A stretch of 4,909 nt of DNA from IMG/VR virus record IMGVR_UViG_2681813274_000011. One strand, given 5' to 3'. Source of the stretch: a virus (Duplodnaviria; Heunggongvirae; Uroviricota; Caudoviricetes). The position numbers were made by a program, and so were the translations under genes. The notes below the pieces were generated by a model. It was given only the letters and a program-made list of their open reading frames with translations. It was not told the DNA's origin and ran no database searches. Shown piece by piece: positions 1-4,909 of this stretch (within the stretch, counting starts at the first letter, position 1; each line of letters begins with the position of its first letter).

Positions 1-494
1 ATTAGAACCTGTATTTTTTGCAACTGTTTCAGATATTTCAGCCAACTGCCATCAACACGTCCCTGAGCCAACTGTTCCAGTAATCGCCCGGTTCTACAGT
101 ACCGGACGCTGTATTTCTGTCGACATGCCTGTTCGCCCAGCGCATTGGCTATCCAGCTCTTACCGCATCCTGTCGGACCGGTTATCAGTAGGTTTTTCCT
201 GTGGATTATGTAGTGGCCGTTCAGCAGTTCCCTCATCTGTTCAGCCCGCAGACCTCTTGAGGCCGGATAACGCAGCCCTTCCGGTGTTGCCTGATATTTC
301 AGGCAGGCATTTTTTCTCAACCGTGCCACACGACTGTTTTCTCTGCTCAGAAGCTCGTCATCAACCAGCAGTGTCAGCCTTTCCTCGAACGACAGTTCGT
401 CGTAAGTCTGAGGCGTTTCCCGTTGCCGTATCAGGCTCCCGGCCATCGCCGGGAGTTTCAGTTGGGTCAGTTTGTTTAACAGATTATCACTCAT
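1..494 (-). CDS. istB: IS21-family IstB-like ATP-binding transposition helper, 5' part only (about 164 N-terminal codons; C-terminus lies beyond window position 1)
   Basis: Minus-strand frame open from ATG at 494..492 to the window edge with no stop (absent from the ORF track because it is open-ended). Translation begins MSDNLLNKLTQLKLPAMAGSLIRQRE and contains a Walker A P-loop LLITGPTGCGKSW. GAAGGA Shine-Dalgarno-like sequence a few nt upstream. Starts 16 nt after the istA stop, the canonical IS21 istA-istB arrangement. Confidence 0.8.
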   Translation of the reverse strand, partial: MSDNLLNKLTQLKLPAMAGSLIRQRETPQTYDELSFEERLTLLVDDELLSRENSRVARLRKNACLKYQATPEGLRYPASRGLRAEQMRELLNGHYIIHRKNLLITGPTGCGKSWIANALGEQACRQKYSVRYCRTGRLLEQLAQGRVDGSWLKYLKQLQKIQVL

Positions 495-510
495 ACGGTT
501 GTTCCTTCTG

Positions 511-2046
511 TCAGTGATAGTAGCCAGGACCACGCAGGTTTTCATGCTCTGAAGCATATGCCGGATGTTGTTCGCCCTGGCGGGATAACGGAAGCTCAAC
601 GTTATCCCGATGATGACGCAGCAGATTGTCGATAAAGCGTCTGTCCGGGGCGTTATAGTGCAGGGCAACGTAACAGGCCTTTTCCAGCCGTTCCGGGCCG
701 TATTTTTTCTGAAGTGCCAGCAGACCCAGGACTGCACGGTAAGCCAGCTCCGGATGGGGTTTGGCTTTCAGCATGGATTCAACCACCCGGCCTGTGGACG
801 GACCTGTACGGTTTCCCTGCTCGATAAGGCGTTCCGGTGTCCATGTCCCATGCCGCCGGTGGCGTTCTGGCATGTGAAGCGGATTGGTTGTGTGTTTATA
901 TTCATGTGTGCTGCGCGGATGTTGCGCCACACACTGCCCCTTGTGCCAGAGCTGTACCACCGACTGCCCCACCTTCAGTGACAGACGCTGACCGACCAGT
1001 TCGTGTGGAACGGAGTACCAGTGACGGGCATATTCAACGTGGTAGTCAGGGCCAACCTTCACGGCTTTGTATTCCGTGTATTCATAAGGCTCCAGAGGCA
1101 GCGGAGAGAGTGCTGGTGCATCCAGCATGCGGAAGCGTTCTGCGCGGGTTTGATTACCGTATCCCTTCATTGGTCGGTTATTCATGTCCGTCAGCAACTC
1201 CCGAAGGCGTGCATTCAGCGCCCTGAGCGTGTGGAAGGTTTCATTACGGATGCGGGCAAGAAGCCATCGCTCGACGATGAGGACGCCGTTTTCTGCTTTT
1301 GGTTTATCTTTAGGTTTGCGCGGGCGGGCCGGGATAATAACCGTGCCATAGTGCTCAGCCAGCGCCTGATAACTGTCGTTGATGACAGGCTCATAGCGAT
1401 CGGCTTTTTTCACTGCGCTTCTGAGGTTATCGGGGATGAGCAGCTTCGGTACGCCGCCCAGGAAGGTCAGGCAACGGCTGTGGGCATTTAACCATGACAT
1501 CATGTCCTGACCTTCGCACGCTTCAACATAGGTATAGTTGGACGCCCCCATTACAGCCACGAAGATTGCCACGCGGCGTATCTCTCCGGTGTCCGGATTA
1601 ATAACAGGGACCGTAGGACCACAGAAGTCGATAAAGAGCTTTTCGCCAGCACGATGCTCCTGTCGCATGGAGAGGCGTCGCGTTTTTTTCCACTTCCGGT
1701 AGCAACGGCAGAAGTGTGAGTATCCCATCGCTTTGTCACCCGCCTGTGCCTTGTATTCCATCCACAACAGTTGGCGCGTCACGCCAGGTTTTCTCATTTC
1801 CGTATCGAAGTACAGCATGTCAGGCATAACAAGCTCTGACGCAGAGGTGTCTTTGGGCGGGAAAATGAGTTTCTCCAGCGTGTCATGGGATATATCCGCA
1901 GGTAATGGCCATGACAGAGAAGAGGCTTTGAAGCGGGCAAGAACCTCAAAAACGGTTGAGGCGCTGATGTGTAACGTCAGTCCGATACAACGGTTAGTCA
2001 GCTTCTTATCGAACTTGAGCTGAAGGATCTTAAAACAAGTTTCCAT
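511..2046 (-). CDS. istA: IS21-family IstA transposase (HTH + DDE/rve catalytic domain), 511 aa from the preferred start
   Basis: The ORF track gives 511..2100 (529 aa). I prefer the in-frame ATG at 2046..2044 (METCFKILQLKF...) because it is preceded by AGGAG with a 4-nt spacer; the ATGs at 2100 and 2076 lack an obvious SD. DDE-type motifs read from the translation: FIDFCG, LLIPDN, and KPKDKPKAENG (K-x-K-x-E pattern typical of IS21 IstA). TGA stop at 513..511. Confidence 0.85.
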   Translation of the reverse strand: METCFKILQLKFDKKLTNRCIGLTLHISASTVFEVLARFKASSLSWPLPADISHDTLEKLIFPPKDTSASELVMPDMLYFDTEMRKPGVTRQLLWMEYKAQAGDKAMGYSHFCRCYRKWKKTRRLSMRQEHRAGEKLFIDFCGPTVPVINPDTGEIRRVAIFVAVMGASNYTYVEACEGQDMMSWLNAHSRCLTFLGGVPKLLIPDNLRSAVKKADRYEPVINDSYQALAEHYGTVIIPARPRKPKDKPKAENGVLIVERWLLARIRNETFHTLRALNARLRELLTDMNNRPMKGYGNQTRAERFRMLDAPALSPLPLEPYEYTEYKAVKVGPDYHVEYARHWYSVPHELVGQRLSLKVGQSVVQLWHKGQCVAQHPRSTHEYKHTTNPLHMPERHRRHGTWTPERLIEQGNRTGPSTGRVVESMLKAKPHPELAYRAVLGLLALQKKYGPERLEKACYVALHYNAPDRRFIDNLLRHHRDNVELPLSRQGEQHPAYASEHENLRGPGYYH

Positions 2047-2155
2047 AGTGCTCCTGGATTTTCTCTTTTTGGACATTGACGTCTCCACTGGTTTAAACAC
2101 GGCAATGGAGACTGTGGTGAAAAGAGTTAATTCCCGGAGTGACTGGCGAATTCCA

Positions 2156-2292
2156 NNNNNNNNNNNNNNNNNNNNNNNNNNNNNNNNNNNNNNNNNNNNN
2201 NNNNNNNNNNNNNNNNNNNNNNNNNNNNNNNNNNNNNNNNNNNNNNNNNNNNNNNNNNNNNNNNNNNNNNNNNNNNNNNNNNNNNNNNNNNN
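2156..2292. other. Run of 137 undetermined bases (N): assembly gap or masked sequence
   Basis: Directly visible in the sequence. The three track ORFs containing X residues (2048..2305 +, 2093..2329 -, 2139..2393 +) are artefacts of translating across it. Confidence 0.95.
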
Positions 2293-2333
2293 ATGCTACC
2301 AATGAAAGATACTGGAAAGCCAACTGCAAAAAG

Positions 2334-2648
2334 CTAACAACCCGTAATCGAGTTATCAGAACTGTTAATTTTTATGGTATACCGCGCCTCTGAACAGGGG
2401 CGCGTTTCTGGCAACAGCTCGTCCCCTTCACATAACCCGGCAGCAACATCCAGGAAGACCTGTCTGATGCTCCTTCTGGCTGCTGCCTCATAAAACTCCA
2501 GCGCGGCACCTTCAACACGGTCCAGCGAGATGTCCAGGTCAAAAATTTCACCGTCAAAGCGTTTTTTGTCCCGTAACGCTAAAGTTACCGTAACTTTATT
2601 CTCAAAATTGCGGATCCCTTTCACAATCAGTTCATAGTTTTGAGTCAT
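2334..2648 (-). CDS. Small acidic cytoplasmic protein of unknown function, 104 aa; YdfR-like (DUF1327-type) by position and size, not verified by sequence
   Basis: ATG at 2648..2646 lies 4 nt after the holin stop (2655..2653), with GGGGAG upstream, suggesting translational coupling. No hydrophobic segment and many D/E residues. In E. coli K-12 cryptic prophage Qin, a ~103-aa gene (ydfR) sits between holin essQ and endolysin rrrQ (recalled synteny); this gene has the same position and size. TAG stop at 2336..2334. Confidence 0.6.
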   Translation of the reverse strand: MTQNYELIVKGIRNFENKVTVTLALRDKKRFDGEIFDLDISLDRVEGAALEFYEAAARRSIRQVFLDVAAGLCEGDELLPETRPCSEARYTIKINSSDNSITGC

Positions 2649-2652
2649 TGAA

Positions 2653-2868
2653 TTACTCTCCCCGTGCAGCCTTACGACGGTCCTCTCTGATTTTGAAATA
2701 CAGGTTAGTCAGATATGTCAGCAGCCCAAACAGCAGACTCCCCAGCACGCCTATTGCCGCCCACTGAGACGGGGAAACCCTGTCCAGCAACTGCAGGAAC
2801 CAGTAGCCCGTTCCCACCGCTGACGTGGTGTATGACACACCTGTTGTGATTTTTTCCATCTGGTACAT
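2653..2868 (-). CDS. S: Phage class II holin of the S21 pinholin type, 71 aa, with a second in-frame start giving 68 aa
   Basis: The track ORF (97 aa, 2653..2946) is over-extended. The start at ATG 2868..2866 (MYQMEK...) is preceded by GGGAGA, and a second in-frame Met at codon 4 (2859..2857) gives 71/68-aa products, the lengths of the phage 21 antiholin/holin pair. Two transmembrane segments: a weakly hydrophobic Gly/Ser/Thr-rich TMD1 ([24 protein letters not shown]-like) and TMD2 ([23 protein letters not shown]). Highly charged C-terminal tail [13 protein letters not shown]. Confidence 0.8.
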
Positions 2869-2903
2869 ACCCCGTCTCCCGTTATCCGGAAGCTGACAAC
2901 AAT

Positions 2904-2933
2904 AAAAAAAGCCACCAGTTAAGTACTGATGGC
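2904..2933 (-). terminator. Rho-independent (intrinsic) terminator between the esterase gene and the holin gene
   Basis: On the minus strand: 8-bp stem (gccaucag / cugguggc, one G-U wobble; plus 2926..2933 and 2911..2918), 7-nt loop, then a run of 7 U (plus-strand A-run 2904..2910). Lies 86 nt downstream of the esterase stop and 35 nt upstream of the holin start. Confidence 0.75.
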
Positions 2934-3018
2934 TCTGATAACTCATGCAGGCATCTCAGACGACCCACTGACACTACCGGTGAGTTTAACGATACCTTCC
3001 ATTTGGCTGGCTCACTTT

Positions 3019-4872
3019 TTATGATGATGCCGGTGCATTTATCTCCAGCACCAGACTTTCTATCTCAACGCCATACGCTGCATTTTTGGTAATATCCGTC
3101 AGCGTCAGCGCATTCAGCCCCAGTGTCAGACTGTCTTTTATGACCTGGAATGCCGGGCCAGCCACTCCATTCAGTTTCGGAGTAACCGTGGCACTGCCGG
3201 CGGTGAACACCAGCTCCAGCGTCAGCCAGTCGTTACTGTAATTCCCGAACTCGCCCAACTTTGTGTTTCCTGCTTTCTTGTGATGCATCAGATTCAGTTT
3301 GCCGTCTGTGGTCTGGGTGAAGAACGACATCAGGAACGGGTTACCAGTCCCGGTCATCGCCACGACGTCAGGTAACGCTACATCGGTATACAGATAAATT
3401 CCCAGACCGAACTGGTTGTTGGTCAGTGCGCCTGACAGTCGAAACTTACAGCTCAGTCTGCCACCCCGTGTCAGCAGGGAGACTGCGTCATCCACCGGGC
3501 GCGTCAGGGACCAGGCTTTATTGCTCTGCTTGGTGATCTTAAATACACCATCTGACAACTGAACTCCGCCATTCTTAATGCTCCAGCCCTGCGCAGCAGC
3601 GTCTCCGGCTGTCGGCAACAGGGAGATTGTGCGTATGGATGCATCTTCAGACGGCCCCGATGGCGTGTCGCCGCCGGGCGAGGGTTTGATTTCCGGTGCC
3701 TTACCACTAATGAAGGCTAAGGTGCGACCGGCTACGTTCAGAATAGCAGTTGCCATACGATCGGGAATAATGCCACGACGCGCCCATGAGCTGAAATGCG
3801 TCGGGCGATTTGATGATACCCAGTTTTTGTTCGTTCGGGATGCCGAACCGTAATAACCAGACCCGGCAATATCAGGATCTTCTGACGGGTTGTTTGTCGG
3901 TGTATTAACTCCGCTACCATCGGTCATAAAGGGAACAAAATAAATCTGCTGGGATTCTTTACCTTTATATGCACCATATACCACTTCATATTGCGTACCG
4001 TGTTCTTGTTTCCACGCGTATGTCGTGTCGCCACAAATCCAGGGGACTGATGCCGGACTTCCACCGTGACACTGCGCCGCCAGCCCGGCAAGGTCAGCAC
4101 GGAACTGCTGTACCATTGCAAGAAATGCTGCTGGCTGCTGGGCGTAACTGGCATTCGTCATATCGAATTCCCCCTGCATCCAGCATATCGCCAGCAAAAC
4201 GTTTTTCGGGTTTTTCTGCAATGCTGCCTTCGTGCGGAAAAGCAGATCCTGATATAACGGCTTACCCACTCCCCAGCGAGCCGAATCCTGACTGGCCCCC
4301 GTGGACTCGCTGAATGTCCCCTCCGTGCCCTGGGTGAATGCCGAACCACCACGACAGCATGGTACCAGCAGGATCCCCGCATTATTAGGGATATACGGAA
4401 GCAGTTTTTTGGCAATATGTAAGCCCTGTCCGACACAGCCGTACTGCCCTTTGCTCAGGTCAGCCCGGGGATGGTTAATCGTACTCATATCCTGAACATC
4501 ATGCAGACAATGGTCAGCAGGAATGATGTCGTTAAATACGCATACTTCACCACCGGGAGTCACTGTGTTACGACGGGCCAGTTGCTTAATGCGCGGATGG
4601 GGCGCATCGTATGAATCCGGAAGCGGAAGACCTTCACCGTAAGCCATGGCATTGGATTGCCCGGCCAGTACGATGACGTAGTACCACTCCGGCTCAGTTG
4701 CACCACTGACGACCACATCACCTTCTGCTGCAATCGCCTGCATCAGGGTATAAGGGGTTATGGCCACCGGACTACCAAACGGCTGCCAGCCCTCCTTCAG
4801 TTTTTGTGTCAGTCGTTTCGCAAGGTCTGACGGCGATGCCGCCCTGACCACGTCATAGTGTTTAAATGCCAT
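3019..4872 (-). CDS. nanS-p: Prophage-encoded sialate O-acetylesterase (NanS-p-like): N-terminal DUF1737-like region, SASA/DUF303 SGNH-type esterase domain, and a ~205-aa C-terminal domain of unknown function
   Basis: 617-aa ORF with ATG at 4872..4870 preceded by GGGAGG (4-nt spacer). SGNH/SASA motifs in the translation: GQSNA (aa 71-75, nucleophile Ser block), WMQGEFD (aa 231-237), THF (aa 358-360, candidate catalytic His). Pro/Ser/Gly-rich linker KPSPGGDTPSGPSEDAS (aa 396-412). Size and position immediately upstream of the holin match the nanS-p genes of lambdoid/Stx-type prophages of E. coli (recalled). Confidence 0.7.
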   Translation of the reverse strand: MAFKHYDVVRAASPSDLAKRLTQKLKEGWQPFGSPVAITPYTLMQAIAAEGDVVVSGATEPEWYYVIVLAGQSNAMAYGEGLPLPDSYDAPHPRIKQLARRNTVTPGGEVCVFNDIIPADHCLHDVQDMSTINHPRADLSKGQYGCVGQGLHIAKKLLPYIPNNAGILLVPCCRGGSAFTQGTEGTFSESTGASQDSARWGVGKPLYQDLLFRTKAALQKNPKNVLLAICWMQGEFDMTNASYAQQPAAFLAMVQQFRADLAGLAAQCHGGSPASVPWICGDTTYAWKQEHGTQYEVVYGAYKGKESQQIYFVPFMTDGSGVNTPTNNPSEDPDIAGSGYYGSASRTNKNWVSSNRPTHFSSWARRGIIPDRMATAILNVAGRTLAFISGKAPEIKPSPGGDTPSGPSEDASIRTISLLPTAGDAAAQGWSIKNGGVQLSDGVFKITKQSNKAWSLTRPVDDAVSLLTRGGRLSCKFRLSGALTNNQFGLGIYLYTDVALPDVVAMTGTGNPFLMSFFTQTTDGKLNLMHHKKAGNTKLGEFGNYSNDWLTLELVFTAGSATVTPKLNGVAGPAFQVIKDSLTLGLNALTLTDITKNAAYGVEIESLVLEINAPASS

Positions 4873-4909
4873 GAATCCTCCCGGCCGGGATAATATTGTG
4901 AGTAAAATA

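Follow-up and report, generated by a model that had tools for sequence, protein, structure and literature searches.

Comparison with finished chromosomes places an ISSso4 insertion in the endolysin gene of a decayed Stx-type lambdoid prophage of Shigella sonnei or a very close relative

Shiga toxin (Stx) phages carry Q, stx, nanS-p, and S in that order, pinholins pair with signal-arrest-release (SAR) endolysins, and insertion sequence (IS) elements have been described in the Q-to-S region of these phages (PMC10462455). In Shigella sonnei, the IS load is expanded and includes ISSso4 and IS600 (both on the 53G list), and IS insertion directly accounts for 50% of the pseudogenes (Hawkey et al. 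2020, PMC7373316). Here we examine a 4,909-nt stretch of viral DNA, IMG/VR record IMGVR_UViG_2681813274_000011 (the window), in which an ISSso4 segment is joined through a run of Ns to part of a lambdoid lysis cassette. All of its genes lie on the minus strand, so that gene direction runs from high to low coordinates. The window shares the order esterase, S21-type holin, YdfR with the cassettes of Stx2-converting phage 86, H-19B, and 933W, for which phage 21 provides the paradigm. In contrast to those cassettes, this locus has no stx, only 50 nt of endolysin, no spanins or nearby terminase or head genes, and insertion sequences on both sides. Our comparisons indicate that the endolysin gene has been broken by ISSso4 and that the N-run hides the break, but also that the long IS body drawn beside it was probably placed there by scaffolding.

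The closest deposited phage is Stx2-converting phage 86, with 93% nucleotide identity, and we therefore assign the window to the late region of a Stx-phage-type lambdoid element. Relatives were retrieved with an exact 70-nt pattern (window 2293-2362), which had a sole match among genome contigs, the uninterrupted locus of E. albertii, and 45 matches among IMG/VR contigs, none of them identical to the window throughout. In E. coli 042 (L002; L-numbers are labels of the sequences compared), E. albertii NBRC 107761 (L006), and the majority of the 45 IMG/VR contigs, the cassette is uninterrupted and reads esterase, holin, YdfR, 177-aa lysozyme, and Rz; the Rz "lysis protein" of E. coli 042 belongs to PF03245. 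An initial annotation of the window had expected an endolysin after ydfR, and these loci bear that out. E. coli 042 is 99.5% identical to the window over 2293-4909; its ydfR is annotated as frameshifted (L002 5042-5357), whereas both the window and the S. sonnei loci have an intact copy.

In the uninterrupted loci, 55 nt separate the ydfR stop from the lysozyme ATG, namely the 41 nt visible in the window and a further 14-nt spacer. The 534-nt gene encodes a Phage_lysozyme domain at residues 33-167 behind a hydrophobic N-terminus (MSAKIKYGLSAAVLALIAAGASAP), as in SAR endolysins that pair with S21-type pinholins. No endolysin gene is present among the open reading frames (ORFs) of the window, as judged by the ORF list and Pfam, and no spanin gene was found there by matching to the Rz region of E. 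coli 042.

The phage half of the window (2293-4909) is identical at 2617/2617 positions to ten finished chromosomes of 4.80-4.91 Mb, two of which, CP022672 (strain 866) and CP041322, are confirmed as S. sonnei by the corresponding papers. These ten places are those found among the matches listed for an exact lookup of the esterase, for which 30 contigs were read, and the loci compared are 21.8 kb long. In the relatives, the interval corresponding to the N-run is 186 nt and consists of 122 nt of the ISSso4 left end, 50 nt of the endolysin 5' end, and the 14-nt spacer. The hidden IS end carries five sub-terminal repeats and finishes in ...CCATTTTGCA; the hidden endolysin end reads MSAKIKYGLSAAVLAL plus 2 nt. 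The junction itself, at which ...CCATTTTGCA runs directly into ATCAGCGCCAG inside the endolysin gene, was read in all ten finished chromosomes (L007-L016) and in six IMG/VR contigs (L024, L031, L032, L034, L039, L059); the near-side junction had no match in JGI metagenome contigs. One of the six, L031, starts exactly where the window starts, matches it without a difference over 1-2155, and has a single N at 2156. Past this N it continues with 121 IS bases, ATCAGCGCCAG...GCGCTCAT (endolysin codons 17-1, opposite strand), the 14-nt spacer, and window 2293 onward.

The left end of ISSso4 thus abuts endolysin nucleotide 50-53 after the ATG, within the N-terminal hydrophobic segment. The exact insertion point is ambiguous within this range because TGC is common to the IS end and the target. 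What is left in S. sonnei is a stump ORF, MSAKIKYGLSAAVLALIA followed by IS-derived residues, and with 50 of 534 nt retained such an 18-residue stump would not be expected to have muramidase activity. The difference between 137 Ns and the 186 nt of the relatives marks the N-run as a scaffold gap of estimated length. Judged from the relatives' sequences, then, the N-run is an assembly gap concealing the IS-endolysin junction, and the endolysin is disrupted by ISSso4 insertion.

The initial annotation had proposed that an IS inserted into or replaced the 5' part of the endolysin gene. The junction at nucleotides 50-53 supports insertion, but replacement does not fit, as the first 50 nt and the 14-nt spacer are retained in relatives. 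It had also allowed that the gap might be longer than 137 nt, which agrees with the relatives, and might then hold an intact endolysin/spanin cluster, of which the relatives have only the 50 nt. The positions on which it built are accurate: ydfR ends at 2334, 41 nt of non-IS sequence (2293-2333) separate it from the N-run at 2156-2292, and the istA ATG lies 109 nt beyond. We also considered whether the one ISSso4 copy with a 47-nt deletion between left-end repeats (L068) could account for the gap length, and rejected it because it predicts 139 nt, not 137.

The identity of the IS is clear. Over window 1-2155 it matches copies annotated in RefSeq as "IS21-like element ISSso4 family" at 2154/2155 positions, a near-identity judged against these annotated copies rather than the ISfinder reference sequence. 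Its IstA scores 287.4 bits against NCBIfam IS21 transposase model NF033546 (cutoff 160), and an IS21-family end does stand where the endolysin gene ought to go on. Like the copies on the S. sonnei virulence plasmid pINV, on E. albertii plasmids, and in S. sonnei and some E. coli genomes, the segment carries istA followed by istB. The annotated istA start, at 2046, gives 511 aa, although the frame can also be opened further out, by a GTG at 2100; istB begins 16 nt after the istA stop, at 494, and runs off the window, and its identical copies bear the annotation of ISSso4 helper ATPase.

A full ISSso4 is 2638 bp, with ends that we set by comparing copies in unrelated contexts, including S. sonnei pINV (L004); the right end was set from L001, L003, and L004, and the copy in L005 has a shortened right end. 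Full copies have TGC...GCA termini, sub-terminal repeats of ~23 nt (about five at the left end, two to three at the right), and, at seven other sites, target duplications of 6-7 bp. The element extends 122 nt past window 2155 to a left terminus ...GATGCCATTTTGCA, so neither terminus is visible in the window, the left one lying under the N-run and the right one beyond position 1. Termini and sub-terminal repeats were seen in L004 and L062-L067, whose copies show 99.9-100% identity to the segment where the two overlap. Of the IS hallmarks that the initial annotation suggested looking for, the left terminus and its repeats are also present in the stub of ISSso4 that adjoins the cassette in relatives, whereas duplications occur only at other sites; no target duplication was found at this one, the right junction being absent from every sequence found. 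The pINV copy (L004 1625-1640, 4278-4300) has the target duplication GCCTGAG and appears inserted into the end of another element, its flank TGAGGTAGCCTGAG...TTTAACGGACACTCC resembling an IS3-family terminus.

Whereas full copies of ISSso4 are 2638 bp long, finished genomes keep only a 285-bp left-end stub at this locus. All ten finished loci, along with IMG/VR contigs L024 and L039, have only ISSso4 positions 1-285 (gene orientation) at the site. Past position 285 the sequence reads TGAGGTGTACTGGCAATAGCGG... and belongs to IS600, matching IS600-annotated copies at 100% identity; the cut corresponds to window 1992/1993. Beyond IS600 come tail-fibre-assembly genes or, in strain 866, another IS21-family element and then tail genes Z, U onward. 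The terminase and head genes are thus missing as well. No further endolysin or Rz was found within ~9 kb past the junction in the finished loci, where the initial annotation had suggested that endolysin sequence might resume, and ISSso4 or E. coli 042 endolysin/Rz matches occur nowhere else in the 21.8 kb.

As only the IS600-cut stub remains, the loss of the endolysin remainder and spanins goes with IS600, not with ISSso4; the IS600 event could be a deletion or a rearrangement. The initial annotation was right that the esterase and holin were kept, their ORFs being intact, but it is IS600 and not ISSso4 that marks the loss of the downstream lysis genes. Its description of the prophage as domesticated found no support in anything tested: the remnant is riddled with insertion sequences and has no terminase or head genes. 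Without these and the spanins, such an element would be unable to lyse cells in the manner of a phage or to make particles. In the finished genomes a further IS600 lies between the esterase and the Q/late-promoter region, which leaves expression of the holin, YdfR, and esterase uncertain. One draft contig, L032, crosses the site of this upstream IS600 without it (L032 3209-3213; compare L007, window orientation 12391-13653). Since that IS600 is present in all the finished chromosomes, the IS600 content of this prophage varies between strains.

How, then, does a 2-kb IS body come to stand at this site in the window? ISSso4 is a multi-copy repeat, as the exact window IstA is encoded in finished chromosomes of the same size class by full copies at six or more other chromosomal sites, none adjoining this cassette. 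Copies within one genome differ (L062-L071), with T/C at position 122, C/T at 2279, and, in the copy adjoining mtl genes, an 81-bp in-frame-looking deletion (2278-2358) in the 3' part of istB. Window position 1 is IS position 2277, directly before that deletion and next to the variant at 2279, which belongs to another copy, and window 2156, the first N and also the single N of L031, is IS position 122. The segment thus starts and stops, to the base, at copy-variable sites, which is how a contig made from several collapsed repeat copies would look. Only about six sites vary over the 2638 bp, and such a coincidence at both ends is very unlikely by chance (rough estimate, below 1e-4). An internal repeat as the reason for the contig end at window 2155 was rejected, as ISSso4 contains no internal exact repeat of at least 12 nt and no partial IS match ends at position 122; the T/C difference explains the end better. 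On these grounds, the IS body was probably placed here by scaffolding.

The exact esterase protein occurs in 2869 collection blocks of public assemblies, and in 2687 of these the longest contig carrying it is 2-5 kb, the pattern expected when a unique segment with repeats on both sides is assembled from short reads. Drafts L032, L034, and L059 break off 33-65 nt inside the IS. L031 (window orientation 4795-6752) jumps, at the 5' end of the esterase gene, to a paralogous prophage region and skips 2.4 kb that are present in L032 (2638-2679 and 5101-6972); L032 and L034 carry single-N joins at such repeat-mediated places. Because L031 joins a paralogous region in this way, joins in these IMG/VR drafts are not trustworthy.

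We consider it probable that the window is a short-read scaffold from S. sonnei or a very close relative, covering the lysis genes of a lambda/Stx-phage-type prophage in decay, the endolysin of which was broken by ISSso4, and that a stub of the IS rather than a full copy lies at the site. The ancestral late region would have carried the esterase, an S21-type holin, YdfR, a SAR-type endolysin, and the spanins Rz/Rz1. ISSso4 would have transposed into the endolysin gene 50-53 nt past its ATG, leaving the 18-residue stump, and IS600 would later have cut ISSso4 at 285 bp from its left end. This cut is present in each of the finished S. sonnei chromosomes compared, and their locus no longer holds the remaining ISSso4 sequence, the remainder of the endolysin gene, the spanins, or the packaging and head genes. 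In the draft assembly, the multi-copy ISSso4 body may have collapsed into one contig (window 1-2155), which read pairs reaching the part shared with the stub (window 1993-2155) would have linked to the contig of unique phage sequence (2293-4909), and the 186 nt of junction that the assembly left open would have become a gap of 137 Ns.

Several points weigh against this account. The IS contig is unbroken at window 1992/1993 (IS 285/286), where a junction of the stub with IS600 should break a de Bruijn assembly. L031 likewise has a continuous IS body from IS position 2277 up to the junction, though across a single-N scaffold join. IS600 content varies, so an older state with full-length ISSso4 at the site could exist, and the assembly method of the window's source is itself inferred. 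The first three of these points favor a source strain that carries a complete ISSso4, a simple insertion predating IS600, with the endolysin remainder and Rz/Rz1 beyond it and a 6-7-bp duplication around it; the duplications at other ISSso4 sites make a normal insertion of this kind mechanistically expected. We nevertheless regard a complete copy as unlikely, since the site holds only the 285-bp stub in all ten of the finished places. The right junction that a complete copy predicts (endolysin remainder, 0-12 nt, and right IS end) has no match in IMG/VR or JGI metagenome contigs, and a window-wide similarity search of 5,426 complete E. coli genomes found neither junction, nor the IS next to ydfR. 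The two segment ends lie on copy-variable sites, as for a collapsed repeat contig, and the join spans an N gap, of which the single-N type in L031 elsewhere coincides with the skipped 2.4-kb stretch. The endolysin is disrupted even if the copy is complete.

Two further readings concern the N-run itself. Were it an exact 137-nt mask, an independent ISSso4 insertion right at the endolysin start codon would be needed; the 15 nt left after subtracting the 122 nt of IS happen to equal the 14-nt spacer plus one base. Every relative with these flanks, however, has its junction 50-53 nt inside the gene, giving 64 nt of phage DNA and a 186-nt interval, and on this ground we rejected a length-exact mask. 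Over its phage half the window has 100% identity to the locus of the clonal S. sonnei, to assume a second, independent insertion when all else is identical would be unparsimonious, and the single N of L031 stands at the same position, 2156, as expected of a filled version of the same scaffold gap. We therefore hold this reading to be highly improbable. It is scarcely credible, finally, that the link between IS and phage is wholly spurious and that no ISSso4 lies next to ydfR in the real genome. Scaffolders often misplace repeat contigs and the join in the window consists of the N-run only, but the junction was read directly in the ten finished chromosomes and six IMG/VR contigs, all with a phage flank that equals or almost equals that of the window.

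ISSso4-group elements have reached this region more than once. The E. coli E21 prophage (NZ_CM143892.1) has an IS of this group in the same esterase/holin/YdfR/lysozyme region. That insertion differs from the present one in being an independent event. The IS there has 96% identity and is flanked by an esterase remnant on one side and the holin on the other, and the lysozyme and lysis protein (Rz) are intact downstream. It is the only complete-genome match that joins the IS and the cassette, and we rejected it as the insertion seen here because the site is different. The E21 copy (L001 5546-8184) is flanked by a 6-bp duplication, GATAAC, at the foot of a terminator-like hairpin, equivalent to window 2937-2942.

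The features of the window, including the retained genes, are listed below. The esterase has the domain order of the NanS-p type (DUF1737, SASA esterase, DUF6645, by Pfam), and its phage homologs are annotated as 9-O-acetyl-N-acetylneuraminic acid deacetylase. It is thus NanS-p-like and predicted to act on O-acetylated sialic acid, as judged from the annotation of these homologs and the literature on NanS-p of enterohemorrhagic E. coli (EHEC). The holin begins MYQM..., with two candidate start codons, M1 and M4, an arrangement resembling that of the phage 21 S antiholin/holin pair; an ORF of 97 aa, opened by an ATG at 2946, is also present but overlaps the terminator-like hairpin. A second, weaker hairpin of this type, at 2359..2334, overlaps the ydfR stop. 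If both hairpins function, late transcription into the holin would require Q antitermination.

Features of the 4,909-nt window, in coordinate order (-, minus strand).
Feature	Coordinates	Strand	Evidence or remark
ISSso4 (IS21 family) body	1..2155	-	IS positions 2277 down to 123 of 2638 bp in gene orientation
istB, 5' two-thirds, 164/251 codons, cut by window end	1..494	-	PF01695 IstB_IS21, E=1.9e-31
istA, IS21-family transposase, 511 aa, intact	511..2046	-	NCBIfam NF033546; Pfam rve + Mu-transpos_C_2
IS part also present in the 285-bp ISSso4 stub of finished chromosomes	1993..2155	-	BLAST of full ISSso4 against L007-L016, L024, L039
N-run, 137 nt, scaffold gap of estimated size	2156..2292	.	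186 nt in relatives
Spacer 3' of ydfR, first 41/55 nt before the endolysin start codon	2293..2333	-	Identical in uninterrupted prophages
YdfR/DUF1327 gene, 104 aa, intact	2334..2648	-	PF07041, E=5e-39; relatives annotated as YdfR family protein
Class II (S21-type) holin, putative pinholin, 71 aa, intact	2653..2868	-	PF04971 (Bacteriophage P21 holin S), E=9e-33; class II holin by annotation
Putative terminator-like hairpin (12-pair stem) then T-run, between esterase and holin	2908..2936	-	Consensus scan
NanS-p-like sialate O-acetylesterase gene, 617 aa, intact	3019..4872	-	Pfam DUF1737 + SASA + DUF6645

For the reading of such records, the locus illustrates that in scaffolded short-read assemblies an N-run beside an IS may hide a real junction, with a length that is only an estimate, and that a full-length IS drawn beside a unique gene can be a collapsed repeat contig tied there by read pairs reaching a short stub. 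IS segment ends that fall exactly on copy-variable sites are a useful diagnostic for such scaffolding artifacts.

The locus shows the same phenomenon as the IS-driven pseudogene formation and prophage decay of Shigella (PMC7373316), an IS entering a coding sequence and further IS-associated loss following. Prophages receive no mention in the main text of that paper. The IS-disrupted endolysin described here is an ordinary one, already present in public finished S. sonnei genomes. That insertion sequences enter prophage genes and that prophages decay step by step is textbook knowledge for Shigella genomes, and with the locus already in many finished S. sonnei chromosomes, we attach little biological weight to it. 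Nor is the sequence identity across assemblies evidence of selection, because S. sonnei is clonal. It is very doubtful that selection in S. sonnei has maintained the intact esterase/holin/YdfR module, for instance for a sialate O-acetylesterase of use in the gut, an idea for which we found no positive support. If it were so, the IS-mediated loss of the endolysin and spanins would be a step that made the module safe to retain.

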